From: Candidatus Polarisedimenticolaceae bacterium
GTDB taxonomy: Bacteria; Acidobacteriota; Polarisedimenticolia; Polarisedimenticolales; DASRJG01
Length of the DNA: 64,000 nt
Direction: 5' to 3'
Assembly: GCA_036275915.1 (NCBI GenBank)
Contig: DASUCV010000009.1
Span: 223,198 to 287,197, forward strand
Part shown: positions 7,244 through 64,000 of the stretch, one piece after another
How positions within the stretch are numbered: the first letter of the stretch is position 1
How the letters are laid out: each line of letters begins with the position of its first letter
Notes under the pieces: model-generated
What the model saw: only the letters and a program-made list of their open reading frames with translations
Told to the model about the DNA's origin: nothing
Databases searched by the model: none
Program-made: the position numbers and the translations under genes

Positions 7244-7731
7244 GGGAGTGGATTTCGCCGGGAGACCGCTCGCATCGCCTCTTCGGCCGTCCGGGGTACG
7301 TCGGGTCCGTCGAAATGGGGCGCGAGCTTGACCGCGGGATAGGCTCGCATCGCGTCGAGCGCTGCGGCGACGTCTCCGGCGGACAGGCCGTCGCAGCTTG
7401 CGTAGACGCCGCCCGCACCTTCCTCACGCTCGTTGTGACCGATCAGAATCGAGCGAATCTCTTCGATGATCGCGGCCGTGGGCGTCGGTACGAGGAGGAG
7501 CGCGAGTGCACCGTGCTCCCGATGCAGCCGGGCAATGATGGACTTGTCGATCTCACCTTTGATCGCCGGGAAGAGGATCTTCTCCTCGATCCCGATATGC
7601 CGCAGCAGCCCCGCGCGGAGATCCTCGTAGCTCGCACGATCGACCTCGCCGGACGGCGTCACCGCCGATGCGAGCAGCGCGTCGAGCCGCTCGTGATCGG
7701 CGGCGAGGAACTTGAGAATCGGTCCCGCCAT
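7240..7731 (-). CDS. Hemerythrin-like (HHE cation-binding) domain protein, 163 aa
   Basis: His/Glu ligand pattern typical of hemerythrin-like domains: AADHERLD, RHIGIEEKILFP, LHREHGAL, IGHNEREE. There is no signal peptide. A 4-bp overlap joins it to the downstream permease gene. Confidence 0.7.
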   Translation of the reverse strand: MAGPILKFLAADHERLDALLASAVTPSGEVDRASYEDLRAGLLRHIGIEEKILFPAIKGEIDKSIIARLHREHGALALLLVPTPTAAIIEEIRSILIGHNEREEGAGGVYASCDGLSAGDVAAALDAMRAYPAVKLAPHFDGPDVPRTAEEAMRAVSRRNPLP

Positions 7732-7755
7732 GCGGCGCGAGTATAGGCGCCGTGC

Positions 7756-9558
7756 TCAAGGCGAAGCGAGCATCCTGCCCAGCGCCAGCGAGAGGTCGGG
7801 CCAGTACGTGATCAGGAGCACGCCCCCGCCGAGGATCGCGAGGAACGGCAGCACGTGGCGGTAGAGCGCGGTCATCGGCTTGCCGAAGCGCGACGACGAC
7901 AGGAAGAGGTTCAGGCCGACCGGCGGAAAGAGGAACCCGAGCTCGAGGTTGGCGAGGAAGATGACGCCGAGGTGGACGGGATCGATCCCGTACGCCGCCG
8001 CCAGGGGGACGACGAGCGGCGTCAGGATGACGATCGCCGAGAACACTTCGAGCACGCTCCCGAGCACGAGGAGCACGACGTTCAAGACGAGCAGGAACAC
8101 GAGCGGCGAGTGGATGTGCGCCTGCACGGCCGCGAGCACCGCGTCGGGGATCTGCGCCTCGACGAGGTAGCCGGTCATCCCGAGCGCGCAGCTCAGGAGG
8201 AGGAGCACGGCGCCGATCATCGCCGAGCCGCGCACCAGCGTCTTCGGCAGGTCGCCGAGGGTCAGGTCGCGGTGGATGAAGACGACGATCACGATGGTGT
8301 AGATCACCGCGAACGCGGCCGTCTCGAGGAGCGACGCCCAGCCGGTCGCGAAGAGCACGATCATCGCGACCGGGATCGACAGCTCCCACTTCGCCTCCCA
8401 GGTCGCGGCGGCGGCTTCCTTCACGGAGAACGGCTGCTTGGACGCGCGCACGCGCTTGCCGACCGTCATCCCGTAGAGCGCGACGATGAGGACGAGGAGC
8501 GTGCCCGGCAGGAGGCCCGCGAGGAAAAGCTTCTCGGCGGGGATCTTCGAGACGACGCTGTAAAGGATGACGGGGAGGCTCGGCGGGAAGAGGAGGCCGA
8601 GGCTTCCCGCGGCGGTGACGAGGCCGAGCGAGAACCCTTCCGGGTAGCCGTCCTCGCGCAGGATCGGATAGACGAGCCCGCCGAGGGCGATGATCGTCAC
8701 GCCGGAGCCGCCGGTGAACGCGGTGAAGACGGCGCACACCGCCGCGACGAGCACCGCGACCCCGCCCGGCATCCAGCCGAGGAGCGCGCGGAAGAACCGG
8801 ACGAGCCGGTGAGCGGCCTGCGAGTCCGCGAGCAGGTAGCCGCACGCGGTCAGGAGCGGGATCGCGGGAAGGGTCGGCGACGCAACGAGGCGGTAGATCT
8901 CCGCGGTGACGGCGGAGACGGGCGTCCCGTCACGGAAGAAGAAGAGCGCGGCGAGGCCGCCCATCGCGGCGAAGACCGGCGCGCCGACGAGCGTCGCGAT
9001 GATGACGAGCGCCGCGAGCGGCAGGACGAGGTGCCGCGAAAAGTCGGGGGCCGCCCCGAGTGCGACGACGAGCGCGACCGCCGCGGCGGCGAGCGCGCGA
9101 CCGCGCCACGAGCGCCCCGCCTTCAGGACGTAGAGGAGCGCCATGCCGGCGAGCGCCGCGGGCATGACCGTCTCGCCGAGCCACTCGGGAGCGCCGAACG
9201 GGAGCACGCGCCCCAGCGTCCGGTCGGCGAGCACGACGCGCACCGCCGCGAACGACAGCACCGCCGCCACGGAGGCGGCGACGGCGTGCGTCAGGAAGTC
9301 GGCCGCGACGCGCAAGCGACCCTCGCCCAGGAGGACCGCCGTCGAGAGACGGAGATGCTCCCCGGCGGCCGTCGCCGCGAGTCCTCCGAGGAAGGTCAGG
9401 AAGAAGGTGAGAACCTGGACGTAGCTCGACGCGCCCGGAACGTGGAACCGCCCGAACGGCCGAGCGGCGAAGTCGATCATCGGAAGGAGCGCGAGCAGGA
9501 GGAGCGACGCGACGAGCAGCGCCTCCCACATCCGTCGCGCGAGCTGGACCGGCCTCAA
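7756..9558 (-). CDS. TRAP transporter fused small/large permease (DctQ-DctM fusion), 600 aa
   Basis: An N-terminal part of about 160 aa with 4 TM segments (DctQ-like) is fused to a DctM-like 12-TM domain (...FTGGSGVTIIALGGLVYPIL..., ...LGFLFPPVGLNLFLSS...). A 4-bp overlap joins it to the upstream binding-protein gene. Confidence 0.85.
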   Translation of the reverse strand: MRPVQLARRMWEALLVASLLLLALLPMIDFAARPFGRFHVPGASSYVQVLTFFLTFLGGLAATAAGEHLRLSTAVLLGEGRLRVAADFLTHAVAASVAAVLSFAAVRVVLADRTLGRVLPFGAPEWLGETVMPAALAGMALLYVLKAGRSWRGRALAAAAVALVVALGAAPDFSRHLVLPLAALVIIATLVGAPVFAAMGGLAALFFFRDGTPVSAVTAEIYRLVASPTLPAIPLLTACGYLLADSQAAHRLVRFFRALLGWMPGGVAVLVAAVCAVFTAFTGGSGVTIIALGGLVYPILREDGYPEGFSLGLVTAAGSLGLLFPPSLPVILYSVVSKIPAEKLFLAGLLPGTLLVLIVALYGMTVGKRVRASKQPFSVKEAAAATWEAKWELSIPVAMIVLFATGWASLLETAAFAVIYTIVIVVFIHRDLTLGDLPKTLVRGSAMIGAVLLLLSCALGMTGYLVEAQIPDAVLAAVQAHIHSPLVFLLVLNVVLLVLGSVLEVFSAIVILTPLVVPLAAAYGIDPVHLGVIFLANLELGFLFPPVGLNLFLSSSRFGKPMTALYRHVLPFLAILGGGVLLITYWPDLSLALGRMLASP

Positions 9559-11508: not shown

Positions 11509-13983
11509 CTACCCCGGCGCCTTCTTCGCAGCCTCCGCGATGGCGTGGCTGCGCGCCTTCGCGGCCGCCGCGGCGGTCCGATCCCCCGTCGTCTCGTAGA
11601 CCGCGGCGAGCGCGTCCAAGTCCTCGATGAGATCCGGCGAATCCTTCCCCGACGCCTTCTCGTCGATCGCGAGCGTGCGCTCGTACAGATGTTTCGCGGC
11701 CGTCAGGTCGCCCGCGGCGCGGTGCACGTCGCCGAGCGAGAAAAGGACCATCGACACCGCGGGGTTGTCCGGCCCGAACTTCTTCTCGCGGATGGCGAGC
11801 GCGCGCTCGAGCGGCTCCTTGGCGGCGGCGGGGTTGCCGGATTGGATCCGCGCGTAGCCGATGTTGTAGAGCGTCTGCGCGACCCTCGGATGGTCGGGAC
11901 CGTACGCCTTCTCCATCGTGTGCAAGGTCCGCTCGAGCATCGGGAACGCCTTGTCGAACTGCTCGAGCTGCGCGTACGCGAGCGACACGTTGCCGAGCGC
12001 CTCGATCACCTCGCGGCTCTCCGGGTCGAGGAACTTCTCGCGGATGGCGAGCGCGCGCTCGAAATTCGAGAGCGCGCGGTCCAGGTGGCCGGTCCGCTGC
12101 TCGAGGACGCCGCGGTTCGTGAGGAGATCGGCGACATCGAGCGATCCGTCGTCGCCCGCGGCGTGAAGGAGAGCGACCCCTTCGTCGAGGTCCTTCTTCG
12201 CCCCCTCGAGATCGTCGACGTCGGTCTTGACCGAGGCACTGTCGACGAGGAATCGTGCCCTCTCGGCCGGGCTCGCATCGGGGGTCGCGGCAAGGATGGC
12301 CCGTGCGCGTTCGAGCGGCGCCAAGGCGGCCTTGGACTCCTTCATCTCTCCGAGCAGCCAGCCGTAACCGGTCAGCGCGCGCGCCAGCGCGAGGCTCGGA
12401 GCGCCGGCGTCGAGGATCGCGATCGCCTCCTCGTATTCCTTCCGGGACGACGTGTAGTCGCCGAGTCCTTCGAGCGTCTTGGCGAGCAGGACCTTCCCTT
12501 CCGCGACCTCGGTGGCTCCTCCGCCGAGCTGCGCCGTCCGGACCTTGACGCTGTCCTCGATCAGCGGCCGCGCGCGCGCGTAGAGACCGAGCCGCTCGTA
12601 GACGTCGGCGATCGCCGCCATGAGACGCGCCCGTACCAGCGGATCCTGCGCCAGCTCGAGACGGATCCGATCGGCTCCGCGGTCCAAGATCTCGCGCGCG
12701 GTGATCTGCTCGCTTCGTGCGCGGTCGGGCTTGCTGACGTCGAAGAGCCCGACGAGGAAGTCGTAGGTGTGCTTCGCGGTGCCGGCTTCCTCGCGGGCCG
12801 ATTTCTCCGCCGCCAGGGCGCGCGCGAGGTTCCTCTCGGAGCGAATGTAGAGGAACGACATGCCGATCGCCGCGACGACGGTCAGAAGAACGACGACGGC
12901 GGCCGCCGCGAACGCGCCTCGGTGGCGGGCGACGAGCTTGCGGATCTGGTAGATCGTGCTCGGCGGATGCGCGAGGATCGGCTCGCTGGCAAGCCAGCGG
13001 CGCACGTCCTCGCCGAGGGCTGCGACGCTCGCATAGCGCTGCTCGGGGTCCTTCTCGAGCGCCTTACGCACGATCGTCTGGAGATCGGCGTCGGGACGTC
13101 CCGGCCCCGGCCAATCCTTGGCGAGCGGGCGCGGCTCGACCTCGCTGATCGTACGAATGGCGTCGGCGAAGACCGACGGCACGTCGTAGGGCGGCTTGTC
13201 GACGAGCATCTCGTAGAGGATCAGGCCGAGCGCGTAGACGTCGGTGCGCACGTCGACGGCGGCGGGGTTGCCTTTCACCTGCTCCGGGCTCATGTAGGGG
13301 ACGGTGCCGCGGACGACGCCGGCGACGCTCGCGGGCGGCGCGCCCTCCTGATCGGGGTCGGTGAGCCGTGCGAGGCCGAAGTCCAGGACCTTGACGATCG
13401 GTCGCGTCGCATACGAGGTGTCGCTGCCCCGCGAATGTGACGGAGCGGACTCCGGCGGCAGCACGATGAGGTTCGACGGCTTGAGGTCGCGGTGGATCAC
13501 GCCGCGCTGATGTGCGTAGTGGACGGCGTCGCACGCGGCGAGGATGATCTCGAGCCGCTCGCGGAGCGCGGCCATGGTCCGCGGCCTCTCGCCGTGCCGC
13601 GCCGCAAGCCACGCGTGAAGGGTCTCGCCGGGAACCAGCTCCATCGCGAACCAGTGGTGCCCGTCGTCCGTGCGCCCAGACTCGAGGATCGCCGCGATCC
13701 CCGGGTGGACGAGGCGCGCGAGCATATCGGCCTCGCGGCGGAAGAGGCGCACGTGCAGCTCGCTGGCGATCGCGCCGCCCCTCACGACCTTGAGCGCGAC
13801 GCGGCGCCTCGGCGTCTCCTGCTCCGCCTCGAAGACGGTGCCGAATCCTCCCTCGCCGAGCTTTCGCAGCAGGCGGAATCCGGGCACGGCGACGGCCGAG
13901 AGAGGGACGGAGCCCTCGGGAATCGCGACGCCTCCCGTCGTCGCGGTCGGCGGGTCGGCCTTCGGGAATTCGCGGCCGGTCAT
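11509..13983 (-). CDS. Membrane Ser/Thr protein kinase with extracytoplasmic TPR repeats, 824 aa
   Basis: Hanks kinase motifs GEGGFGTVFEA, VALK, HRDLKPSN, DFGLAR and SPEQ. One TM segment (AFAAAAVVVLLTVVAAIGMSFLYI). The C-terminal half has repeated TPR-like units (...ALxxxExALAIxEKxxGPDHP...). Confidence 0.9.
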   Translation of the reverse strand: MTGREFPKADPPTATTGGVAIPEGSVPLSAVAVPGFRLLRKLGEGGFGTVFEAEQETPRRRVALKVVRGGAIASELHVRLFRREADMLARLVHPGIAAILESGRTDDGHHWFAMELVPGETLHAWLAARHGERPRTMAALRERLEIILAACDAVHYAHQRGVIHRDLKPSNLIVLPPESAPSHSRGSDTSYATRPIVKVLDFGLARLTDPDQEGAPPASVAGVVRGTVPYMSPEQVKGNPAAVDVRTDVYALGLILYEMLVDKPPYDVPSVFADAIRTISEVEPRPLAKDWPGPGRPDADLQTIVRKALEKDPEQRYASVAALGEDVRRWLASEPILAHPPSTIYQIRKLVARHRGAFAAAAVVVLLTVVAAIGMSFLYIRSERNLARALAAEKSAREEAGTAKHTYDFLVGLFDVSKPDRARSEQITAREILDRGADRIRLELAQDPLVRARLMAAIADVYERLGLYARARPLIEDSVKVRTAQLGGGATEVAEGKVLLAKTLEGLGDYTSSRKEYEEAIAILDAGAPSLALARALTGYGWLLGEMKESKAALAPLERARAILAATPDASPAERARFLVDSASVKTDVDDLEGAKKDLDEGVALLHAAGDDGSLDVADLLTNRGVLEQRTGHLDRALSNFERALAIREKFLDPESREVIEALGNVSLAYAQLEQFDKAFPMLERTLHTMEKAYGPDHPRVAQTLYNIGYARIQSGNPAAAKEPLERALAIREKKFGPDNPAVSMVLFSLGDVHRAAGDLTAAKHLYERTLAIDEKASGKDSPDLIEDLDALAAVYETTGDRTAAAAAKARSHAIAEAAKKAPG

Positions 13984-16652
13984 GGCTTCGGGAGCTCCTG
14001 CGTCCAGTTCGACACCACGACGATCGGTGCCGCGCCTTCGGAGGCGAGCGTGTTGACCACGAACGTCGCGCCGTCCGCCGCCATGTCGAGCGTGGAGTAA
14101 CCGGGGCGAAGGAGCACGCGGAAGAGCGGCGTCTCGGCACCCGGCTGCATCGACCTGGCCGCGAGCGGGACGCTCACGATCGTCCCGTCGGAACGCCAGT
14201 AGACGAGCTCACGATCGCCGGGGCCCCACTGCGGCAGCACGCCGCCGTGGGGCGAGATCTGGATACGGCTTCCGTCGCCCGTACCCGGCGCAGGCGCGAT
14301 GAAGACCTGAGGCTGACCCCCGCTCACGACGCCGTACGCGATGAAGCGCCCGTCATGCGAGATGCGTGCGAAGCTCAGGTTCTTGGTGCCCGTGTCCAGC
14401 CACTGAATCGATCCCGTGCCGTCCGCGGACGCGACGCCGAGGCGGTCCGCGAGCGTGGTGTTCCAGTTGCCGGAGCCGACGAGGAGCTTGCGGCCGTCCG
14501 CCGACCAGTCGACGGGCCACAGGTCTTCCTTGTCGGCCTTGAGAACCGTGCGCCCCGGCCCTCCGTCCGAGGCCATGACCATGACCGCGTAATCCCCGGG
14601 CTGATGCGTCGTCGCGACGTTCTTCGTGTACGCGATCCACCGGCCGTCGGGTGAGAACAACGGAACGTCCTCGTCCTCGTCACCGGTGGTGAGCCGCCGC
14701 GCGGCGCCCCGCTCGATGTCGTACACGAAGATGTCGCCGCTCGGCGTGAGCTGCGAGGAGTAGGCGATCCGTTTGCCGTCGTGCGAGAGCCGCACGGCGA
14801 AGTGGTTCCCGACCTCCGCGACCTTGCGCAGAAGCTTGCCGCTGCGGTCGCGAATCTGGATCTCGCTTCCCTGCGTCCCTCCGGTGGGCTGGTAGACGAG
14901 GACTCCCTTCTCGGTCACCGACACGTTGGCCTTCCAGGTCGAAGGGTCGAATTGCACGCGATCGGCGGTCGGTCGCGGCTCTCCCGTGAACTCCGCCTTC
15001 CTGGGATCGAACGGCCGCGCGATGAGCACGCTGTCCTGCACGTAGAAGAGGTAGCCGCCCGCGTACTGCGCATCGGTCGCGCACGGGACGAGCGTGCGAT
15101 TCTCTTTGCCGTCGAGCGAAGCGACCCAGACCGAATTCTCCTGGCCACCGACGTCGTCGTGATTGCCGGCGTAGTAGAGCAGGTGCTTCCCGTCGGGAAG
15201 GAAGTGCGGCCACCGGTGCGTGGTTTGCTTCGACGAGGCGAGGGTCGTCGCGGGTTGCGGCGTTCCACCCATCGCGGACACCTGCTGGAGCGCCGTCCGG
15301 TAGTCCGGAGAGAACACGATGACGCCGGAGGCGCTCCACGTTCCCCCGCGTCCGCCCGGCGCGGGACAGATCGCCATGACCTGCCGCGTGTCGATGTCGA
15401 CGCGCTTCAATTTCAGATCCGCGAAGAAGCCGAGCGAGTGCCCGTCCGGCGACCAGAACGGGTAGGTGGCGCTCTCCGTGCCGGGGATCGGCTCGGCCTT
15501 CAGCGAGGCGAGATCGCGCAGCCAGATCGAAGCGCCGCCTCGGTCGTCGACGGCGACGAACGCCACGCGCTTGCCGTCGGGCGAGATCACCGGCGGTCCC
15601 GCGTTGTCGCCCCCAAAGAGGAAGAGCGCGCCCTCGGGCGGCGTGACGATCGTGCGCATGACGCGTGCATCGTCCCCGTGACGGAGCGCGAGCAGCGCGA
15701 ACAGGGCGAGCGCGACGCCGAGCGCGCCGACGATCCAGCCGGTCCAGGCGATTCGCGGTCGCTTCATCGTCGCGACCGGCGCCGCACCGGCGGAGCTGCC
15801 CTCGCCGATCCAACGAAGTTGCAGGCGGACGTCGTGCGCGGTCTGGATCCGCTCGTCGGGATCCTTGACCAGGCACATGCGGATCAGATGGTCGAGCGCG
15901 GGAGGCGTCGTCGGCATCAGCTCCGCCGCCGGCCGCGGCGCGTCGCGCATGATCGCCGAGATCAAGCTCGCCTGCGTGGCGCCCTCGAACGCGCGCTTGC
16001 CGGTCGCCATCTCGTAGAGCACGCAGCCGAACGCCCACAGATCGGCGCGCGCGTCGGACTCGCGCCCCTCGAGCTGCTCCGGCGCCATGTACTGGAACGT
16101 GCCGAGGATCGTCCCCTCCGCCGTGAGCGGCGCCGCCACCGTGGGCGAGCTCGTCATCTCGCCTGGGCGCCCGAGGCCGGTCGCGCGCGCCAGGCCGAAG
16201 TCCATGAGCTTCGCCCCGGACTTTGTGAGCATCACGTTCCCCGGCTTGAGATCGCGATGCGAGACGCCGGCGCGATGCGCCCGGTCGAGCGCGTCCGCGA
16301 TCTGGCCGCCGATCCGCAGCACGTCGGCGAGCGGCAGCGCCCCCTTCGCGAGCCGTTGCGCGAGCGTCTCGCCCTCGATCAGCTCCATGACGAGGTAGTC
16401 GGTGTCGCCCTGGCGCCCGACGTCGTGGAGAGTGCAGACGTTCGGATGGTTCAGCGAGGAGACGGCCTTGGCCTCGCGCTCGAACCGCGCGCGGATCTCT
16501 GGGTTCGACGAGAGGTGCTGCGGCAGCACCTTGATCGCGACCTCGCGGCCGAGCCGCGTGTCCTTCGCGCGATAGACCTCGCCCATCCCTCCCGCGCCGA
16601 GCGGTGATGTGATCTCGTAGGGGCCCAGCTGGGTTCCGGACGCGAGCGGCAC
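13980..16652 (-). CDS. Membrane Ser/Thr protein kinase with C-terminal TolB-like beta-propeller repeats, 890 aa
   Basis: Motifs GAGGMGEVYRA, VAIK, HRDLKPGN, DFGLAR and APEQ. TM segment WIVGALGVALALFALLAL. The C-terminus has repeated WD40-like/TolB units (...FSPDGKRVAF..., WSPDGHSLGF, FLPDGKHLLY, LSHDGKRIAY, FSPDGRWIAY, WSADGRKLL...). A 4-bp overlap joins it to the downstream kinase gene. Confidence 0.9.
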   Translation of the reverse strand: MPLASGTQLGPYEITSPLGAGGMGEVYRAKDTRLGREVAIKVLPQHLSSNPEIRARFEREAKAVSSLNHPNVCTLHDVGRQGDTDYLVMELIEGETLAQRLAKGALPLADVLRIGGQIADALDRAHRAGVSHRDLKPGNVMLTKSGAKLMDFGLARATGLGRPGEMTSSPTVAAPLTAEGTILGTFQYMAPEQLEGRESDARADLWAFGCVLYEMATGKRAFEGATQASLISAIMRDAPRPAAELMPTTPPALDHLIRMCLVKDPDERIQTAHDVRLQLRWIGEGSSAGAAPVATMKRPRIAWTGWIVGALGVALALFALLALRHGDDARVMRTIVTPPEGALFLFGGDNAGPPVISPDGKRVAFVAVDDRGGASIWLRDLASLKAEPIPGTESATYPFWSPDGHSLGFFADLKLKRVDIDTRQVMAICPAPGGRGGTWSASGVIVFSPDYRTALQQVSAMGGTPQPATTLASSKQTTHRWPHFLPDGKHLLYYAGNHDDVGGQENSVWVASLDGKENRTLVPCATDAQYAGGYLFYVQDSVLIARPFDPRKAEFTGEPRPTADRVQFDPSTWKANVSVTEKGVLVYQPTGGTQGSEIQIRDRSGKLLRKVAEVGNHFAVRLSHDGKRIAYSSQLTPSGDIFVYDIERGAARRLTTGDEDEDVPLFSPDGRWIAYTKNVATTHQPGDYAVMVMASDGGPGRTVLKADKEDLWPVDWSADGRKLLVGSGNWNTTLADRLGVASADGTGSIQWLDTGTKNLSFARISHDGRFIAYGVVSGGQPQVFIAPAPGTGDGSRIQISPHGGVLPQWGPGDRELVYWRSDGTIVSVPLAARSMQPGAETPLFRVLLRPGYSTLDMAADGATFVVNTLASEGAAPIVVVSNWTQELPKP

Positions 16653-55792: not shown

Positions 55793-58700
55793 TTATGGAC
55801 AGGCGTTCGCGCTCGCCGCGATCTCCGCATCGCGGCTCTGGACCTGCTTCGGCGAGCCGTCGTCGTAGGTCCCGCCGCCGCAGACGTTCCTCACCCGGAC
55901 CAGGTAATAGAGCGGGCCGCCGGGCGGAATCGCGGCGCCGATGTCCCAGGACGTGCCGTTCAGGTTGGCCACTTCGCAGCCCGCGGACGTGAAGTTGCCA
56001 CCCGAGCTTCGAAGGTTGTTGATGTTGCCGTGCACGACGTCGTAGCCGCTGGCGCCTGCAATCGAGGTCCAGGAGAGCAGCGACTTCGTCGGCATGGTGA
56101 GCACCGGTATGCCGGTGGGAGGCGTGCCGGGATCGACGACGCCGTCGCAGTTGTTGTCGATGCCGTCGCACAGCTCCGGCATCCCCGGGTTGATGTTCGG
56201 GTTGTTGTCGTTGCAGTCCTCGCCGGCGGGGTAGCCGTCGCCGTCGGCATCCGTGAGGCACGTCGCGTCGACCTCGAGTGCCAGATCTCGGTCGATGTCG
56301 TCGTTGTAGGCGCCACCGTCGACCCAGGAGAAGCCGACGAAGCGGAAGCGGTACGGGTTCGAGCGAATCGCTCCCTCCGAGGCCGAGATCGCGTAGGCGC
56401 CGCCGCCGCTCCCAGGCTCCATCGTGGCGTAGATCGACAGCCAGTACGTCCCGGCCGACAGGCGTTGGGTGACGTTGAAGTTGGGCTCCCAGAGCTTGCC
56501 GTCGGCCCGATGGCCGAGCGATTGTCCCGGGACGACGCACGTTCCGCCCGCCGAACAGTCCGTCGCGGCGACGCACATCGTTCCCGGGCTGTTCGAGCAG
56601 TACGAGTGCACCGTCCAGTTCCCGATCATCGTCCCGGGATAGCCGGAGGCGTCGTGGTAGAGGTGCGCGACGGCATCCCATTCCTTCGACGCGTCCTGGA
56701 GGACGCCTCGGAACGCGGTGACGTCGCAGACCTTCCCCGCGGGCACCACGAAGTCCTCGGCGCTCTCGCGTGTCGACACGCCCGGAACGTCGACCGCCTG
56801 ACTTTGGGAGATGAGGTCGACCTCTCCGTTCGTCCAGAAGGTCCCGGGATTGCCGAGGTACTCGTACGCGCCCAGGTCGCAAGCGACCTCGGGATCGCGG
56901 AACATGCCGCGGACGTCGTTCGCCGCGCAGGTCGACGGTGCGCCGGCGTCGAGGGCCGGCGAGCCGGGCTTGACGCGCAGGTCGGACCCGGGAACGCGGA
57001 AGAGGGGATCGACGTTGAGGATGCCGGTGCCGCCGGGATACCCGCCCTGCACGATACTCGTCGAGACGGCGGCGGCCGCGCCGCTGATGTCGCCCCCAGT
57101 GTTCCCCCAAAGGATCGAGTTGCGGATCGTCACGGTGCTCGGCGTGAAGACGTAGATTCCGCCGCCGCTCGTCGGCGCGGAGTTCGCGCTGAGCGTGACG
57201 TTGTTGAGGCGCAGCGCGGCTTGCCAGTCGAAGACGCCGCCCCCGATGTCGGACGTCGCCTGGTTGCCCTGGAATTCGACGCTGTCGAGGACGACCGAGC
57301 CGACCGTGGTGCCCAGCCACGACGAGAGGCCGCCGCCGCGCGTTCCCTGGTTCGCGAGGAACCTGGAATTTTCGATGTGCGGCGTCCCGCCCTCCGTGAA
57401 GAGGCCGCCCCCTTCGCTGACGGCGGTGTTCCCCTGGAAGGTGATGAACGTGAGGCGAGGGCTTCCGTTCTCGTTCCACATCCCGCCGCCCTTGTTGTTC
57501 GTCGAGTTGTTCACGAGCGTGATGTGCTGGAGGCTCGGCGCGCCGCTCTCGTTGTAGATCCCGGCGCCCCTCTGGACGGCGAAGTTCTGCTGGACGACGA
57601 GCTGCCGCAGCGTCGGATAGCCTCCAAGGATCAGGATCCCGGCTCCGCGCTCGTAGGGGACCGTGGGCCCGTCGGCATGGCCGAAGCTCACCGTGAAGCC
57701 GTCGAGCACGGCGCTGTCGTCGATCGTCGCCGCCGCGCTGACGACGTTGTAGCTGTTGTCGCCACTCGTGGCGGCCGATCCGATGTTCCCCGACAGGATC
57801 GAGACATGCGCCTGCGGATCTCGAGTACCTCCCCCGTGCGGGTAGCCCCCGAGCATCGTCACGCCGTTCTTCAGCAGGAAGGCGCCGGTGCGGTCGCCCG
57901 AGTGCACGTGGGTGAAGGTGTTCCAGTCCGGCAGGTAGGTCCCTTCTGCGATGAGGATCCTCGCTCCCGGCGTCGCCAGCTTGATCGCTTCGTTGAGCTC
58001 CTTGAATGCGTTGGCCCACGAGGTCCCGTTGTTGAGCCCGGCGGCTGTGCTGTCCACGTAGTAGACCTGATTCATGGCATCGAGGGCGGCCTTCAAGTTG
58101 GGGAGCGGCCCGAGGTGGCGGGCCCCGGCCTGCGCCGTTCCCGTCGAAACGAGGAGGCTCTTGATCAGTGCCGGCGGGGCGGGCGTCTGGTTCTGCTGCT
58201 TGTGCGCCTGCTCGAGGAGCGCGACCGCGCCGGTGATCATCGGCCCGGAGCTCGAGCTGCCGCTGAAGTCCGAGCGGTAGTAGACGTTCTTCCCCTCGGC
58301 CGAGTAGAGGAACGGGCCTGTGGGATAGGCGCCGGTGGTCACGACGGAATCGCCCCAGCCCTGGAGATCGACCGTCGCGCCGTAATTGCTCCACGATTGA
58401 TAGCTGCGCGGCGTGGCCATGTGCGGCGACTGCCCTCCGGTGACGAGGAGCGCGCCCGAATCGTTCTGGAGGAGGAACGGCCAGTGGTTGTCGTTGCCGG
58501 TCGAGTACACGGGATCGTCGAGGTTCTGGCCGCCGTTGCCGGTGGTCTCCACGACGTTGATGCCGTTCGCGACGAGCGTCAGGATGGCGTCGTAGACGGG
58601 TTTCGACCATTCCATGGGGACGTAGTTCTGTCCACCGAACGGTCCGACCATCTGCTGCTCGATGAGCACGACGTCGCCGGCGGACATCGCGGCGCCGCAT

Positions 58701-59491
58701 TCCATGAGCGGACGGACCACGCTGTAGCCGATGTCCGTGGAGGCGCCGGCGAGGAAGCCGGAGACGCCGTACGAGATCCCCGTGGTGCCGGTACCGTCGT
58801 TCTTCGAGGCGATCTCCCCCCACACGCCGGTGCCGTGATCGTCGCCGAACGGATCCCAGGGGATGCGCCCGACGACGCTGATGGGCGGCAGGTCCACATG
58901 GTTGAAGTTGATCCAGTACTCGACGTCGCACACCTTGACGCCCGAGCCGGTCCAGCCGCGGGACCAGGCGTTGCGCGCATCGATCCCGTTCGGCGCGGCG
59001 TCGAGGTAGTCCTGGTAAGGGTTGGCCGGCGGCTGCGAGTAGTCGGGTGCCGTCGGCGACTCTACGGGCTTGGGCACGAAGTACGCAGCCTCGACGCTCG
59101 GGTAACGCTCGAGAATCTCCTTCGCGTGCACGGCGGTCATCCCCGGAGGGAGCTGCAGGCGGAAGTAATTGTTGAGATCGGGGAGCGGCTTGGTGCGATT
59201 CGCCTGACCGTTCTGGCGCAGGCGGTCGAGCACCTCTTCGGCGACCGAGTGCGTGCGATCCCAGCTCTCCTCGCCGAAGGCGCCGAGGATGCCCCGGAGA
59301 TCCGATTGGACGGAGGATTGGCCTCCGACATCGGTGGGGCGTCCCTGACGCAGGCGGACCGTCGTCCCCTCCTTGAACTTCACGTCGAGGAGATTCGGCT
59401 CGTAGCCGGAATCGATCACCGGAGGCGCCGCGAAGGCCAAGCCTCCGGCCAAGATGACGGACAGGACGACCGCGAGCTTCGTGATGTTCAT
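55793..59491 (-). CDS. 1232-aa secreted multidomain protein: propeptide, S8 subtilisin-like peptidase, right-handed parallel beta-helix region, beta-sandwich-like region, MopE-like Cys/Asp motif and a C-terminal domain
   Basis: ATG 59491-59489. Signal peptide [22 protein letters not shown]8 triad contexts are KVCDVEY (Asp), GDDHGTGV (His) and [12 protein letters not shown] (Ser). This is followed by ...[27 protein letters not shown]... and repeated GGG(I/L/M/V)-type beta-helix turns. [40 protein letters not shown] is encoded at nt 56132-56250. Confidence 0.85.
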
Positions 59492-59528
59492 GGGTCCACC
59501 CCCTTCTCGCGGGTCAATAACGGAAACG

Positions 59529-59557
59529 CTGACGCTTGTTACGGGGTGCGGTAAATT
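59529..59557 (+). promoter_or_regulatory. Sigma-70-like promoter candidate giving a very short or leaderless mRNA for the ECF sigma gene
   Basis: CTGACG (59529-59534), a 17-nt spacer, then TAAATT (59552-59557). The ATG lies 7 nt downstream and has no SD. Confidence 0.3.
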
Positions 59558-59564
59558 GACTCGG

Positions 59565-60305
59565 ATGGGAGGGAACGACGACGAATTTCGGGGAAAGAAG
59601 AAGCTCTTCCAGACGACGCAGTGGAGTGTCGTCTTGCGGGCGGGCTCGGGCGAGGCGGAGCATGCAAACGCCCTCGCCACCCTCTGCCAGGACTACTGGC
59701 GTCCCGTGTACGCCTACGTCCGCTGGCGCGGGTACGACGCCGAGGTGGCCCGCGATCTGACCCAGGGGTTCTTCGCCGCGCTCCTCGAGCGACGCGGCCT
59801 CGAGCTGGCGCGCAAGGAGCGGGGCCGGTTCCGGGACTTCCTCCTCACGTCGGTCAAGAACTTCCTCGCGCACCACCACGAGCGGGAGCAGGCGCTCAAG
59901 CGAGGAGGTGGCCGCTCTCCGGTCCGCCTCGACGCCGACCCCGAAGCCTCCCTCGCGGGAGTGCCCTTACCTGCCACCCACGAGACACCCGAGAAGATCT
60001 TCGAGCGGCGCTGGGCGATGACCGTCCTCGATCAGACGATGCTCGATCTCGCCGCCGACATGGAGCGCGAGGGGCGCGTGGAGCGGTTCGACATGCTCCA
60101 GCCCTACCTCGTGAGCGATACCGAGCCGCCCCACGCGGACCTCGCACGCGAGCTGAAGATGTCGGAGTCCGCGGTGCGGGTCGCGCTGCACCGGCTGCGG
60201 CACCGTTTCGGTGAGGCCCTGCGCGACCGCGTCGCCCGCACCCTCGAAGACCCGAGCCGCGTCGAGGACGAGCTGCGCTATCTCATCGGCCTTGTCGGCG
60301 CGTAG
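59565..60305 (+). CDS. ECF-type sigma-70 family RNA polymerase sigma factor, 246 aa, of the kinase-associated kind
   Basis: The ATG at 59565 was verified. N-terminus ...TTQWSVVLRAG.... Region 2 ...YWRPVYAYVRWRGYDAEVARDLTQGFFAALLE.... A long linker follows. Region 4 HTH ...HADLARELKMSESAVRVALHRLRHRF.... The longer track start (59454) overlaps the divergent gene and is rejected. Confidence 0.8.
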   Translation: MGGNDDEFRGKKKLFQTTQWSVVLRAGSGEAEHANALATLCQDYWRPVYAYVRWRGYDAEVARDLTQGFFAALLERRGLELARKERGRFRDFLLTSVKNFLAHHHEREQALKRGGGRSPVRLDADPEASLAGVPLPATHETPEKIFERRWAMTVLDQTMLDLAADMEREGRVERFDMLQPYLVSDTEPPHADLARELKMSESAVRVALHRLRHRFGEALRDRVARTLEDPSRVEDELRYLIGLVGA

Positions 60306-60319
60306 TAAGAAAAACTTGG

Positions 60320-63154
60320 TTACTGTCCCCTTACGACCTTCCGAACCTGATCGAACCAGTTGAGGATCTCCACGACACGGTCGCCCGGATACTGGGCGGC
60401 CACCGGCCTCACGCCGAGGAAGCGCTCGCCGTCGGCGGCGAACCCGTTCAGCTCGACGAAGTCCGAGGGGATCTTCACGAGATCCCTCGGTAGGCCGGCC
60501 GAGATCCCGCTCGCGGTCGCCGAGAGCGGGACGGACATGAGCCAACGATCCGGTCCTTCTTCGCGCACGTACACCAGCTCGTTCCCGCGAGGAGACCAAT
60601 GGGGCAGGGTGCCTCCGCCGCGCGAGACCTGCCACGTTCCGTTCCCCGTCGGCAGCGGCCGGATGTAGACCTCCCAGTGCCCACCGACGTTCGTCTGATA
60701 GGCGAGCCAACGGCCGTCGGGAGAAACGGCAGGGCTCGCGGGATTGGTCTCTCCGAATCCCGTGAGGCGCCGCGAGTCTCCGCCTTCCGTGCGTGTGAGG
60801 TAGATGGCATCCGGTGCCAAGTGGACGACTCCCGGCCCCTCCTCCGTGCGAACGACGAGTCTCGCGAATTCGCCGTCGACGTCGATCGGAAGACGCCGGG
60901 GCGCGCCGGTCCCATCGGCGTCGGCCGCATACAGGTGCAGGGTGGCGCCCCCTTCCGCGTCGGAGGAAACGAGCAGCTGGCGCCCATCGGGAAACCAGGA
61001 CCGGAGCGCGATATTTCCCGCGGACCTGGCACGGGTCGTCGATCGCCGGTCCAGGTCGTAGACGGCGACCGTGTCGGTGGCGCCGAACACCGTCGAAGCG
61101 ATCCGCGTCCCGTCGGGTGACAGGATCGGCCGGTAGTAGGGCTCCAGCGGAGCCCCCACGGACGTGACGTTCCCCCGCCGGTCGAGCCAGACGAGCTCGT
61201 TGCGCGCGATGTCCTCGCCTCCTGGGACGAAGACGATCGCCCCCGCATCGGAAGCGACGGCGAACTGCGCGGCGCCGCTGCCCGGCGACGTCATCACGTT
61301 CGACAGGATGCGGACCGGTGGCCCGGTGACTTTCTCAGACCGGAGGTCGAAGGGCACCGCCACGATGGCGCCGTCCCGCGCGTAGACGATGTGGCCGGTC
61401 GGGAGGTACCTGGCGAACGACCCGCCGCGAATGAGCGTCTTCCAGGACTTCGTGTCGAGGTCGAGCAGGGCGATCTCGCCTTCGTCGAACGACGTGATCC
61501 CTTCCTTCTTGATCGTGAAGAGCAGGTGGCGGCCGTCGGGAAGCGCGGACGGCCAGCGGTGGGACACCTCTCCCTTGGAGGTGTCGGGAACGGTGAGCGT
61601 CAGGGCCGCGCCACCGTTCTCTCCCACCATCATCAAGCCGGCTTTCGCCGCCGGAGAGAAGACGATCCCCCGTTGCGTCCAGGCGGCCCCCTTCATCCCA
61701 CCCACGCTGAGGTTCTCGGTGATGAGGGTCGGCGAAGCGCCGTCGAGACTGACCTTGTAGAGGCCGCGCCCGGAGAAACCGAGCCACTTGCCGTCCGGAG
61801 AGAAGAACGGGTCGAAGGCGGCGTTCGCCGCATCGGGTGAGGCCACACACCGGGTGGCGATCTCGTCGGCCCGGCGCACGCAGATCGACCAATCGATCCC
61901 GTTCGTCCGTGGCGTCTTTCCGAAGTAGGCGATCGTCATCCCGTCGGCCGTGACGGCCACGCTCGAGTGGTCCGAGGCGCGAAAGCCCGGGTGAGCCGGA
62001 TCGGTGACGTCGACCCTGAGCGGGATCACGGGCGCGTTGCCGGCGTGGATGTCCGGACCGGAGCGCGGGGCCCTCATCGCGATCGCCGCCGACACGACGG
62101 CGGCGACGACCGCGAGACCGGCGATGCTCCACGGGAAGATGTCGCGGCGGCGGCGTGGAACCGATTTCGTCGCGGCTACGGCGCCGGAAGAGGTCCACTC
62201 ACGCCCCTCGCGGACGCGCTCGAGCTCGATTCGCAGGTCGCCGGCATCGCGGAGACGGCGCGTCGGGTCTTTCTCCAGGCATCGCTCGATCAGCTCGCGC
62301 AGACGCGCCGGCGTGCGAGACGGAAGGGCCTCCCAGCTCGGATCCCACTCGATGATCCTGACGAGCACGTCCGTCGCGGTATCGCCCTCGAACGCGCGCT
62401 TCCCGGCGAGGCATTCGTAGAGCACGCAGCCGAGCGACCAGATGTCCGTGCGCCGGTCGACCGGGCGGCCGCGCGCCTGCTCGGGACTCATGTACGGAAC
62501 GGTCCCGATCACCATCCCGGGCTTCGTGAACTGCAGGCTCGCCGTCCGCGACAGACCGAGATCCTCGGCGGCCGGCTCTTCATCGAGCGCCTTCGCCAGA
62601 CCGAAATCGAGGATCTTCACCTTTCCGTCCGGCGTGATCATGACGTTCGAGGGCTTGAGATCCCGGTGCACGATCCCGCTCTCGTGCGCGGATTCGAGGC
62701 CGTCGGCGACCTGGGCGAACACCGACAACGCTTCGTCGATCCGCATGGGACCAGATTTCAGCCGATCGGCCAGCGAGTGCCCCTCGACGAGCTCCATGAC
62801 GAGGAAGTGCGTGTCGTCGTCGAGCTCCTCGAAGCCGTAGACGGCGGCGATGTTCGTGTGGTTGAGCGAGGCGGCGACACGCGCCTCGCGCCGGAACCGC
62901 GCGTTGCGCTCCGGGTCGTTCGCGACCCTCGCCGGCAGCACCTTGATCGCCACCTCTCGATCGAGACGGTCGTCGTGCGCTCGATAAACCTCTCCCATCC
63001 CGCCGCGTCCCAGACGCGAGACGATCCGGTAAGACCCGAGCTGATCGGGAGCCGACGCTTCGAGGCCGAGCCCGAAGAGACATTTGGGGCAGGGCTGGCC
63101 GGCGGGCCGCTCGGTGCCGCACTTCGCGCAACGGACGATCGGCTCGCTCGACAC
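60320..63154 (-). CDS. Membrane Ser/Thr protein kinase with an N-terminal Cys4 zinc-ribbon-like motif and C-terminal TolB-like beta-propellers, 944 aa
   Basis: The N-terminus is MSSEPIVRCAKCGTERPAGQPCPKC. Kinase motifs are GRGGMGEVYRA, VAIK, HRDLKPSN, DFGLAK and SPEQ. TM segment WSIAGLAVVAAVVSAAIAM. Propeller repeats are FSPDGKWLGF, LPDGRHLLF, LSPDGTRIAS, WFPDGRQLLV and VSPDGRWLAY. Confidence 0.9.
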   Translation of the reverse strand: MSSEPIVRCAKCGTERPAGQPCPKCLFGLGLEASAPDQLGSYRIVSRLGRGGMGEVYRAHDDRLDREVAIKVLPARVANDPERNARFRREARVAASLNHTNIAAVYGFEELDDDTHFLVMELVEGHSLADRLKSGPMRIDEALSVFAQVADGLESAHESGIVHRDLKPSNVMITPDGKVKILDFGLAKALDEEPAAEDLGLSRTASLQFTKPGMVIGTVPYMSPEQARGRPVDRRTDIWSLGCVLYECLAGKRAFEGDTATDVLVRIIEWDPSWEALPSRTPARLRELIERCLEKDPTRRLRDAGDLRIELERVREGREWTSSGAVAATKSVPRRRRDIFPWSIAGLAVVAAVVSAAIAMRAPRSGPDIHAGNAPVIPLRVDVTDPAHPGFRASDHSSVAVTADGMTIAYFGKTPRTNGIDWSICVRRADEIATRCVASPDAANAAFDPFFSPDGKWLGFSGRGLYKVSLDGASPTLITENLSVGGMKGAAWTQRGIVFSPAAKAGLMMVGENGGAALTLTVPDTSKGEVSHRWPSALPDGRHLLFTIKKEGITSFDEGEIALLDLDTKSWKTLIRGGSFARYLPTGHIVYARDGAIVAVPFDLRSEKVTGPPVRILSNVMTSPGSGAAQFAVASDAGAIVFVPGGEDIARNELVWLDRRGNVTSVGAPLEPYYRPILSPDGTRIASTVFGATDTVAVYDLDRRSTTRARSAGNIALRSWFPDGRQLLVSSDAEGGATLHLYAADADGTGAPRRLPIDVDGEFARLVVRTEEGPGVVHLAPDAIYLTRTEGGDSRRLTGFGETNPASPAVSPDGRWLAYQTNVGGHWEVYIRPLPTGNGTWQVSRGGGTLPHWSPRGNELVYVREEGPDRWLMSVPLSATASGISAGLPRDLVKIPSDFVELNGFAADGERFLGVRPVAAQYPGDRVVEILNWFDQVRKVVRGQ

Positions 63155-63212: not shown

Positions 63213-64000
63213 TCATTGCTTGCTCGTGAAGAGGCGCGCGAGCTCGCCGTATCCTTCCTTATCGAGATTCTCCACCGGGATGAAACGTAGGGCGGCCGAG
63301 TTCATGCAGTAACGCATCCCCGTCGGCGCCGGACCGTCGGCGAAGACGTGCCCCAGATGGGAGTTCGCGAGCTTGCTGCGCACCTCGGTCCTCGACATGG
63401 TCAGACTCCGGTCGTCCTGTGTCGCGATGTGCTTCGGATCGATCGGCTTCGTGAAGCTCGGCCAGCCCGTGCCCGAGTCGAACTTGTCGCGCGAGCTGAA
63501 GAGCGGCTCTCCCGAGACCACGTCGACGTAGATGCCGTCCCTGTGGTTGTCCCAGTAGGCATTGTGGAAGGGAGGCTCGGTCCCCTCCTTCTGCGTGACG
63601 TTGTACTGGAGAAGGTCGAGCTTCGCCCGCAGCGTCTCATCGGCCGGCTTCTTGAACCCATCGCCGGTCCATGCCGTGACCGACTTCGTGCGCCGATGGC
63701 AAGCGGCGGATCCGCCTTTCTCGACGTACTGCTGATGGTAGGCCTCCGCTTTCGTGAACGTCGCCGCCGGAACGATCTCGGTGACGACAGGTGCTGCGAG
63801 CTCACCCGACGACGCGAGCCGCTTCCGCGACGCTTCGGCCCGGGCCTTCTGGTCCTCCGTGAAATAGAAGATGACCGAGCGGTACTGGCTTCCGTGGTCC
63901 GGACCCTGACGGTCGGGAGTCGTCGGGTCGTGGATGCTCCAGAAGAGATCGAGCAGCTCGTCGTAGGAGACGAGCGCCGGATCGTACTCGACCTCGACCG
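63213..64000 (-). CDS. msrAB: Bifunctional peptide-methionine sulfoxide reductase MsrA-MsrB fusion, 5' end outside the window
   Basis: My hand translation upstream of the track ORF stays open to the window edge. It reads ...[45 protein letters not shown]... (MsrA), then ...[51 protein letters not shown]...[11 protein letters not shown] (MsrB). Confidence 0.9.

Follow-up and report, generated by a model that had tools for sequence, protein, structure and literature searches.

Three adjacent genes in the window (the whole 64-kb stretch of DNA that was analysed) probably form a three-part signalling module, in which a receptor kinase activates a sigma factor that has no anti-sigma gene and that in turn switches on a secreted S8 protease. 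The locus is a clear example of a kind of module that is already known, that of the kinase-linked ECF sigma factors, but it is not of the ECF43 type. We propose that the kinase (periplasmic PD40 propeller, one transmembrane helix, cytoplasmic kinase domain and a four-Cys motif) would sense an extracytoplasmic cue and activate the adjacent ECF-like sigma factor, most likely through direct phosphorylation. The active sigma factor, itself apparently made constitutively from a housekeeping-type promoter on a leaderless mRNA, would then bring RNA polymerase to a predicted promoter on the minus strand and so turn on S8 expression. The elements of the locus are as follows:

55793-59491, minus strand: gene for a secreted protease of the S8 (subtilase) family, 1232 aa; the sigma factor's proposed direct target
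59518-59542, minus strand: predicted ECF-type promoter GTAAC-N15-CGTTA toward the S8 gene (-35 box 59542-59538, -10 box 59522-59518)
59565-60305, plus strand: ECF-like sigma factor gene, 246 aa
60306-60319: the 14 bp that separate the stop codons of the convergent sigma and kinase genes
60320-63154, minus strand: receptor Hanks-type Ser/Thr kinase gene, 944 aa; its product is the regulator proposed for the sigma factor

Gene arrangement at the locus

The S8 gene (start at 59491) is divergent from the sigma gene at a spacing of 73 bp, and the open reading frame coordinates agree with the initial annotation, which had the sigma gene flanked by a divergent S8 gene and by a convergent gene for a 944-aa kinase 14 bp away. 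Its further claim that no anti-sigma gene lies between these neighbours also stands, since no such open reading frame is possible in the 73-bp or the 14-bp gap. A housekeeping-type -10-like hexamer, TAAATT (59552-59557, plus strand), ends 7 nt before the sigma start codon, and no Shine-Dalgarno sequence was seen before the gene. The same element, TA(C/A)A(T/A)T, precedes the sigma gene in five of six clade loci and the sixth has a looser TAAAGT, all of them 6-7 nt before the ATG or GTG. From the position of the hexamer and the lack of a Shine-Dalgarno sequence we suggest, tentatively, that the sigma mRNA is leaderless and the sigma factor non-autoregulated; the gene seemingly lacks an ECF-type promoter of its own.

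A divergent ECF-like sigma factor

The sigma protein is ECF-like but divergent. It scores below the cut-offs of the family models, with 20.0 bits against Pfam Sigma70_r2 (cut-off 24), 16.4 bits in a partial match to r4_2 (cut-off 25.7) and 35.7 bits against NCBIfam TIGR02937 (cut-off 42.9). Its sole PDB sequence match is the ECF sigma factor BldN (E = 0.007), and a Foldseek search with its AlphaFold model gave ECF sigma factors as the best match and as most of the top matches, all weak (best E = 0.15, TM 0.28-0.46) and none at E ≤ 0.001. No region 3 was detected. The linker runs from the end of region 2, near residue 109, to the start of region 4, near residue 162 (the latter extrapolated from the partial r4_2 match), and with about 50 aa it bears out the unusually long one described before. 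Disorder is predicted for linker residues 115-137, and KRGGG, D123 and T141-P142-E143 are near-invariant. The landmarks of the protein are:

Residues 15-21: FxTTxW(S/T) motif, N-terminus
Residues 61-68: region 2.2 octet, VARDLTQG
Residues 112-116: KRGGG, linker
Residues 141-143: TPE, linker
Residues about 190-225: helix-turn-helix, region 4

Most of the conserved Ser and Thr residues (T141, S200 and T226) lie at helix starts in the model and may be structural. The family to which the protein belongs is very large: it forms 6710 clusters when grouped at 50% identity, and its members come from Acidobacteriota, Verrucomicrobiota and Planctomycetota.

Linkage of sigma and kinase genes

A Hanks kinase is encoded at 77 of the 80 species-level loci of this family, at a distance of at most 400 bp in 63 and at most 1.5 kb in 72. 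Of the 77 linked loci, 49 have the order sigma>kinase, 21 have kinase>sigma, 6 are divergent, and in one the genes overlap. Other kinases number only about 10 in the flanking DNA of these loci, which totals roughly 1 Mb. Closer to the window, a convergent PD40 kinase of 765-945 aa is kept in all six close relatives with an identifiable neighbour (sigma identity 73-86%). A lack of linkage in relatives had been named beforehand as a ground for rejecting the proposed system; the linkage is in fact conserved at both levels. At locus L001 a kinase orthologue (53% identity) lies directly downstream of the sigma gene on the same strand, and the kinase gene has therefore been inverted in the window's lineage, yet retained. 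Sigma and kinase-domain distances are correlated (Mantel r = 0.75; maximum 0.18 in 2000 permutations), with species phylogeny as a confounder. No conserved small membrane-protein gene was found beside the sigma-kinase pairs. Functional coupling of sigma factor and kinase is thus well supported.

The kinase and its four-Cys motif

The kinase has the following parts:

63080-63130, minus strand: zinc-ribbon-like four-Cys motif of the N-terminus (C9, C12, C22, C25; CAKCG...CPKCLF)
62252-63031, minus strand: Pkinase catalytic domain, residues 42-301 (E = 4e-55)
62075-62137, minus strand: single transmembrane helix, residues 340-360, the sole strongly hydrophobic 19-residue stretch
60323-61954, minus strand: PD40/TolB-like beta-propeller region, about residues 400-944, extracytoplasmic and the presumed sensor

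All of the Hanks-type motifs are present, namely the Gly-rich loop (GRGGMG at 49), the VAIK Lys (K71), HRD (163-165, in HRDLKPSN), DFG (183-185) and (S/A)PE (SPE, 223-225), and by these motifs the enzyme is predicted to be catalytically competent; the catalytic residues are invariant in 60 of 60 partner kinases of the sigma family. Orthologues of the 944-aa protein give Tricorn_N/PD40 matches, and partner kinases across the family carry WD40, TPR and other repeat domains. The CxxC-[LIVMF] core of the four-Cys motif (the CPxCL part) occurs in 57 of the 60 kinases encoded beside a sigma gene; both Cys pairs could be seen in 18, because estimated start sites cut off some of the N-termini. It is found in none of seven kinases that are not beside such a sigma gene; two of the seven are in the 64-kb window, and one of these two is a PD40 paralogue. 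We regard the motif as a candidate sigma-docking element.

This specificity would also suit a kinase that acts as a membrane-anchored, anti-sigma-like partner, its cytoplasmic four-Cys element binding and sequestering the sigma factor until a signal or autophosphorylation releases it, with no need for sigma phosphorylation. The N-terminal extension of ECF43-type kinases is a different, helical one (PknS, PMC13147305), which fits a family-specific docking module, and those family members whose region 2.2 is canonical are perhaps intrinsically active and in need of restraint. We nonetheless think such a mechanism unlikely: the motif spans only about 17-25 residues, far below known anti-sigma domains, the invariance of the catalytic residues places catalysis itself under selection, and the sigma factor is phosphorylated directly in both tested systems, where PknT acts on EcfP, and PknS on EcfK, with some of the EcfK sites in its linker (PMC13147305, PMC8999054).

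The S8 protease and its predicted promoter

The 1232-aa product matches Peptidase_S8 (PF00082) at 31.8 bits, above the gathering score of 21.8, as well as Beta_helix (PF13229) and MopE (PF11617); besides a signal peptide it carries a beta-helix region and a MopE-type motif, and its candidate Asp-His-Ser motifs stand in that order at residues 187, 217 and 410, the catalytic residues being assigned by eye. The -10 box of the predicted promoter lies 26 nt before the S8 ATG, and GTAAC-N15-CGTTA has one match in the 64 kb, both strands included, against 0.01 expected. It fits both the consensus of the sigma family, cTGTAACCT-N10-tTTcc.T, and the Bryobacterales form, TGTAAC-N15/16-CCTTAT, and these promoter boxes recur across the family at equal spacing. 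Upstream of the S8 position it is kept, also at equal spacing, in L082, L084, L085 and L086; it is conserved in five of five clade loci whatever the downstream gene. S8 orthologues occupy the corresponding position in L082 and in the contig of P0002, and four close relatives have a secreted protein of about 145 aa there instead. Of the gene trio whose co-occurrence had been put forward as a check, the sigma-kinase pair is therefore conserved and the protease is not. The idea that the sigma factor drives the surface protease gains from a family-typical promoter that is unique in the window and conserved in relatives, and the S8 gene is a well-supported predicted direct target; recognition of GTAAC-N15-CGTTA by this particular sigma factor we infer only from co-occurrence.

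GTAAC is present in 33 of 46 sigma>kinase gaps (about 5 expected), and Bryobacterales loci have the promoter upstream of the sigma gene and upstream of a divergent secreted-protein gene. In many sigma>kinase loci, 33 of the 46, a family-type promoter thus stands between the two genes, and the kinase there is probably an output of the sigma factor as well. The kinase could then be simply a regulon member or act on other substrates, of which Hanks kinases usually have many, and control of the sigma factor could lie in its transcription or with an anti-sigma factor whose gene is not linked to it. For the present locus we find this account improbable, as the kinase gene of the window's clade is convergent and has no family-type promoter before it, but is still adjacent in the six close relatives; moreover, the pairs have no conserved small membrane-protein gene with them, and the seeming lack of an ECF-type promoter before the sigma gene argues for post-translational control.

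Region 2.2 and the ECF43 assignment

The initial annotation pointed to ECF43 and to an ECF43-style switch, in which phosphorylation of a region 2.2 Thr would restore an acidic patch, as in EcfP/PknT. We consider this very improbable, and the assignment does not hold. In ECF43, characteristically, DAED is replaced by an uncharged QTTA (STTA in EcfP), the third residue of which is the phospho-Thr (PMC13147305, PMC8999054). The stretch in question here is V61-A62-R63-D64, with Arg at the phospho-Thr position and Asp adjoining it; family-wide, position 63 is R, Q or E and D64 is 99% conserved. The suggested comparison of region 2.2 with EcfP thus came out in two ways, since the window's clade has indeed lost the acid at three of the four positions of DxxDxxQE/DAED that carry one (V61, R63 and G68), but Arg stands where the phospho-acceptor Thr should be. 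T66 does lie inside the helix, and the neighbourhood is that of ECF43 (a Hanks-type kinase gene conserved nearby and no anti-sigma gene), but BldN has a Thr at the T66 position too (AEDLTSE). DLTQE with its Thr is ordinary ECF sigma sequence. The fully canonical DAEDLTQE does occur in part of the family, in members that are kinase-linked nonetheless, and with D64 kept as well, a charge-restoring region 2.2 switch cannot explain the family-wide kinase link.

The match to PF07638 is likewise below the cut-off (16.2 bits against 21.1) and covers residues 85-220 only, and TIGR02999 is absent from the NCBIfam matches. The sigma factor thus has neither sequence character of ECF43, that is, an uncharged region 2.2 with Thr at the third position or a PF07638/TIGR02999 match; we take PF07638/TIGR02999-type sigma factors to be ECF43-type from their common Q(A/T)TALVHEA motif. 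An hhalign comparison of the sigma family with PF07638 gave a weak-to-moderate match (E = 9e-5, probability 59%), and both contain the segment RG(R/H)F...K(R/H)GGG...LD, where sigma-2 passes into the linker.

The earlier statement that a single ECF group has a link to kinases no longer holds, as ECF43, 59-62, 217, 267 and 283 are now listed (PMC7826278), and kinase-linked groups besides ECF43 are reported to retain a DAED-like acidic motif (PMC8999054). In ECF59 and the original ECF60 a Ser replaces a DAED acid and is the proposed phospho-acceptor (PMC8103513); the sigma factor here has no Ser in residues 61-64 (VARD), and Ser makes up 5% or less at family positions 61 and 63.

With three Hanks kinases in the 64-kb window, the adjacency might be fortuitous if this genome were taken alone, but coincidence among three functionally unrelated genes in a kinase-rich genome is practically ruled out by linkage conserved across relatives in several phyla, co-divergence of the pairs, the motif specific to the partner kinases and the conserved promoter.

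Candidate phosphorylation sites

For activation by the kinase, phosphorylation of the sigma factor and its acceptor residue are inferred, with EcfP and EcfK as precedents. Judged from the sequence, the acceptor is not the region 2.2 Thr of ECF43; candidates are T17/T18/S21, T66, S118 and T141. T17, T18 and S21 belong to the conserved N-terminal motif, which is modelled at pLDDT <60. S118 lies just after KRGGG, near the region of the EcfK linker sites. A bolder proposal, which we offer tentatively and with some doubt, is that the family as a whole uses a kinase-dependent switch distinct from that of ECF43, with phosphorylation of the near-invariant FxTTxW(S/T) or of the linker just after KRGGG, and with each kinase docking onto its own sigma factor through the four-Cys element, which would keep the many paralogous pairs of a genome specific. 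If true, this would be a second, mechanistically distinct phosphorylation control of sigma factors, thousands of Acidobacteriota, Verrucomicrobiota and Planctomycetota genes would use a non-ECF43 switch, and the locus described here would serve as a minimal test case, with one sensor, one sigma factor, one promoter and one target.

Comparison with known systems

The closest systems are EcfP/PknT of Vibrio parahaemolyticus and EcfK/PknS of Xanthomonas citri (ECF43). They too lack an anti-sigma gene, and next to the sigma gene stands that of a receptor Hanks kinase whose extracytoplasmic or repeat domain varies. Besides the segment in common with the PF07638 sigma factors, ECF43 has a conserved Thr close to the N-terminus (T5 of the PF07638 alignment) that corresponds to T18 here in a hand alignment, and in its kinases, too, the catalytic domain is preceded by an additional N-terminal element. 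That element is a helical bundle in ECF43, whereas it is the four-Cys motif here; region 2.2 is Q(T/A)TALVHEA in ECF43 and xA(R/Q/E)DLTQ(G/A/E) in the sigma family, so that Arg or Gln takes the place of the phospho-Thr and position 4 is an invariant Asp, and the present sigma factor is about 60 aa longer, with its linker of ~50 aa.

Classical ECF pairs (RpoE/RseA, SigW/RsiW, BldN/RsbN) have the two-domain sigma-2/sigma-4 fold that is predicted for the present protein as well. As at this locus, their promoters are bipartite, with AAC in the -35 box and a -10 box of the CGT type, and a regulator gene is retained beside the sigma gene. They differ in that the partner here is a predicted active kinase in place of an anti-sigma factor, and that the sigma factor of the window's clade is apparently not autoregulated.

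Planctomycetal ECF59-ECF62 and ECF217 were reportedly associated with kinases by Jogler in 2012 and Casas-Pastor in 2021, as a prediction from synteny only. Like the present family, these groups are kinase-linked, without anti-sigma genes and abundant in Planctomycetota. Many members of the present family also keep the DAED-like motif described for groups besides ECF43 (PMC8999054), and the Ser of ECF59/60 (PMC8103513) is the point of difference in that motif. Compared by their descriptions, the example here further differs from ECF59-ECF62 and ECF217 in coming from Acidobacteriota (Polarisedimenticolaceae) and in its unusual convergent gene order.

Gene layout and overall reading

The three neighbouring genes considered here lie in a window with a G+C content of about 69% and are as follows:

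55793-59491, minus strand: secreted S8 protease, 1232 aa
59565-60305, plus strand: sigma factor, 246 aa
60320-63154, minus strand: kinase, 944 aa

The protease gene begins with a minus-strand start codon at 59491-59489, one base away from the initial annotation's 59492; translation from 59492 is frameshifted and yields no domain hits, while the correct reading frame includes a Peptidase_S8 match, a beta-helix region and a MopE-type motif. The sigma sequence is identical to a hypothetical protein of a Candidatus Polarisedimenticolaceae (Acidobacteriota) metagenome-assembled genome. The intergenic gaps are only 73 bp between protease and sigma genes (59492-59564) and 14 bp between sigma and kinase genes, so no additional ORF fits between the three genes, and the claim that the sigma has an adjacent receptor kinase and no anti-sigma gene holds. 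Six relatives' loci with wider sigma-kinase gaps were also examined for a small anti-sigma-like ORF, and nothing consistent was found. Just upstream of the kinase start is a SelR/MsrB (methionine sulfoxide reductase B) gene or gene fragment (63213-63521, minus strand; Pfam E = 3.5e-35).

The locus is likely a kinase-coupled, ECF-like sigma system without an anti-sigma factor whose probable target is the protease, and it is not ECF43, the kinase-linked group that had been proposed for it; the earlier interpretation thus survives in its first two parts and loses the ECF43 identity and the ECF43 switch.

The sigma factor and its family

Every curated sigma model scores below its cut-off on the window sigma, the sole PDB sequence match is to the ECF sigma BldN, and the best structural neighbours of its AlphaFold model (mean pLDDT 74) are ECF sigmas with weak scores (best E = 0.15); the protein is ECF-like but divergent. 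Its region 2-region 4 linker is indeed unusually long, as first noticed, at about 50 residues that are mostly disordered in the model and within which KRGGG, D123 and T141-P142-E143 are near-invariant. The family is very large (6710 clusters at 50% identity with E <= 1e-30 in a profile search); it is very abundant in soil and sediment phyla, and unstudied.

Linkage of sigma and kinase genes

Since the window contains three Hanks kinases, adjacency in one genome alone proves little. We therefore searched for sigma relatives in a genome set with one representative per species, and used the best 80 of at least 593 loci; most of the 80 belong to Acidobacteriota, Verrucomicrobiota or Planctomycetota, and a few bear other labels. 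A Hanks kinase is present in 77 of these 80 loci, in 63 of them no more than 400 bp from the sigma and in 72 no more than 1.5 kb away, and contig ends cut off two of the three loci that lack one; only about ten further kinases are found elsewhere in the approximately 1 Mb of flanking DNA. The 77 gene pairs are arranged sigma>kinase (49), kinase>sigma (21), divergently (6) or overlapping (1). The convergent order of the window occurs in none of the 80 species-level loci, and a convergent PD40 kinase (765-945 aa) is kept in six close relatives whose sigmas are 73-86% identical; in a seventh (P0021) the convergent gene is truncated and its identity not assignable. In the nearest species-level relative (L001) the sigma gene is followed immediately, on its own strand, by the gene of an orthologous kinase (53% identity), and therefore the kinase gene has been inverted in the window's clade, yet has stayed next to the sigma. 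Over 60 pairs, the distances among the sigmas correlate with those among the kinase domains (Mantel r = 0.75, in part due to shared species history; maximum 0.18 in 2000 permutations). The linkage is conserved both across species and among the close relatives.

The sigma is not an ECF43 member

In ECF43 sigmas the acidic DAED of region 2.2 is replaced by QTTA or STTA, of which the second Thr is phosphorylated (PMC13147305, PMC8999054). We mapped region 2.2 through the BldN alignment and this published DAED/QTTA correspondence, which places V61-A62-R63-D64-L-T66-Q67-G68 of the window sigma opposite T-A-E-D-L-T-S-E. The position of the ECF43 phospho-Thr, which was expected to hold an acceptor Thr, is Arg in the window sigma, and the next residue is an Asp with 99% conservation across the family. 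In the PF07638 proteins that we retrieved, region 2.2 is exactly Q-A-T-A-L-V-H-E-A, and the PF07638 model gives the window sigma 16.2 bits against a cut-off of 21.1. On these grounds we reject ECF43 membership.

A missing acidic patch had also been anticipated. Across 347 family members the region 2.2 octet ranges from a fully canonical DAEDLTQE to the (T/A/V)ARDLTQG of the window's clade, so that three of four acidic positions are lost in that clade but not in the family as a whole, and a charge switch in region 2.2 therefore cannot account for kinase linkage in the family at large. The sigma family and PF07638 sigmas are distantly related, judging by an hhalign comparison (E = 9e-5, probability 59%) whose aligned segment is RG(R/H)F...K(R/H)GGG...LD and whose alignment of region 2.2 itself is unreliable in its gap placement. 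By our own count on the consensus, that segment presumably lies just before the linker phosphosites of EcfK.

The window locus is of a kind already known: where the initial annotation spoke of one kinase-linked ECF group, such sigmas are recognised from genome context in several, namely ECF43, 59-62, 217, 267 and 283 (PMC7826278). Direct phosphorylation has been shown in two ECF43 pairs only, and how non-ECF43 members are switched is an open question (PMC8999054). Besides correcting the ECF43 label, the value of the present analysis lies in regularities at the family level, which make that question directly testable. For such tests it supplies a partner kinase marked by a family-specific N-terminal element, a few candidate acceptor residues, the promoter prediction TGTAAC-N15-C(C/G)TT and one clear target gene.

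A four-Cys motif in the partner kinases

All Hanks catalytic motifs are present in the window kinase; a single transmembrane helix spans its residues 340-360, its C-terminal region is PD40/TolB-like, and its N-terminus bears a zinc-ribbon-like C-x2-C...C-P-x-C-L motif (C9, C12, C22 and C25). The core of this motif, Cx(1-2)C-[LIVMF] (CPxCL), is found in 57 of 60 sigma-adjacent kinases, always N-terminal to their catalytic domain, and both Cys pairs are visible in 18 of the 60, a count affected by approximate kinase start positions that removed the first pair in some. The C-terminal domains of these partner kinases differ (TPR, WD40, RDD or PD40). The four-Cys motif is absent from all seven kinases of the same loci and window that do not adjoin a family sigma. 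A tandem pair of Hanks kinases in the window provides internal controls that neither carry the motif nor adjoin a family sigma, and the first of these has the same architecture as the partner kinase; both are among the seven:

13980-16652, minus strand: Pkinase+PD40, 890 aa
11509-13983, minus strand: Pkinase+TPR, 824 aa

Sigmas of the PF07638/TIGR02999 type likewise lie directly upstream of kinases, but the N-terminal extension of those kinases is helical and replaces the four-Cys motif. Two of them (L088:5679-8732 and L090:5674-7749) share a conserved helical segment, IFxxAlE...R..yLd..C..D..LR.EVE.LL, which parallels the 81-residue helical N-terminal extension reported for PknS (PMC13147305). 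Because the kinases of different sigma families differ in their N-termini, we suspect that this element matches each kinase to its own sigma. A Limisphaerales locus (L014) contains three paralogous pairs of family sigma and four-Cys kinase inside 16.7 kb, a sign of tandem expansion that would require the pairs to be insulated from one another.

Candidate acceptor residues

By analogy with the ECF43 precedents EcfP/PknT and EcfK/PknS, we infer that the kinase would phosphorylate the sigma. The Ser and Thr residues conserved across the family are T17, T18, S21, T66, S96, T141, S200 and T226. Three of these (T141, S200 and T226) are at helix starts in the AlphaFold model and may be structural, and T66 occurs also in ordinary ECF sigmas (BldN alignment). 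Covariation of T66 with residue 68, examined as a sign of charge compensation, finds no support, since T66 persists alongside G, A and E at residue 68. The near-invariance of the FxTTxW(S/T) motif, combined with the low confidence of its model, would fit a docking or acceptor site. S118 comes shortly after KRGGG, near the location of the EcfK linker sites. At sigma residues 91 and 121 (window 59835-59837 and 59925-59927) Ser predominates in the family (66% and 65%, respectively), while the clade of the window has D91 and R121, and it departs from the family also at R63 and G68; these positions could carry or mimic charge.

A predicted family promoter, with the protease as likely target

Upstream regions were searched for shared bipartite motifs. 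Loci of Bryobacterales have TGTAAC-N15/16-CCTTAT ahead of the sigma gene and a second copy toward a divergent secreted-protein gene. Twelve kinase>sigma loci (Bryobacterales/Terriglobia) have both copies, one between kinase and sigma genes and the other facing away from the kinase toward a varying secreted-protein gene (~153-662 aa):

L017, L018, L020, L034, L036, L037, L039, L040, L060, L066, L069, L070

Among sigma>kinase gaps GTAAC is present in 33 of 46 (about 5 expected; for example L009, L016, L045, L062 and L074), with the consensus cTGTAACCT-N10-tTTcc.TcAGtA, and in these loci it appears to be the kinase gene and not the sigma gene that is sigma-dependent, a form of feedback that is unusual among ECF systems. 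The window has the following site, which fits both boxes of this consensus in register:

59518-59542, minus strand: GTAAC-N15-CGTTA, 26 nt before the S8 protease start codon

It is the single match in 64 kb on both strands (0.01 expected), and the promoter block and its spacing are kept in all five clade loci compared, while the remaining intergenic sequence is variable. The window site was missed by a strict position weight matrix derived from Bryobacterales promoters, the matrix being over-fitted to one clade, and we judged the site instead by consensus pattern, phylogenetic footprinting and the family-wide survey. In the literature, a search for ECF promoters of the TGTAAC type returned nothing relevant. 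Taken together, there is good indirect evidence that family sigmas recognise a GTAAC-type promoter, and the S8 gene is likely a direct target of the sigma, as had been proposed.

No copy of the family motif lies ahead of the sigma gene in the window. TAAATT is found 7 nt before its ATG without a Shine-Dalgarno sequence (59552-59564), and the equivalents in five clade loci (L081, L082 and L084-L086) have TA(C/A)A(T/A)T, or in one case the looser TAAAGT, 6-7 nt before the start codon, also without a Shine-Dalgarno sequence. This suggests a leaderless sigma mRNA from a housekeeping-type promoter, which would suit a sigma that is controlled post-translationally.

Of the gene trio, whose co-occurrence was to be checked, the sigma-kinase part recurs. 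In three of the five clade loci and in L001, however, the protease is replaced behind the promoter by a ~145-aa secreted protein of no Pfam family with the motifs VPFxF..G...PAGEY and RFLS:

L084:5479-5925, minus strand
L085:66-503, minus strand
L086:5481-5912, minus strand
L001, minus-strand gene with its promoter at position 924

The regulated gene has been exchanged in evolution, from a small secreted protein to the giant S8 protease, with the promoter kept. In L081 (sigma 72% identical) a conventional ECF sigma gene and a 318-aa gene, together at 6491-7974, lie directly upstream on the same strand and occupy the place of the divergent target gene.
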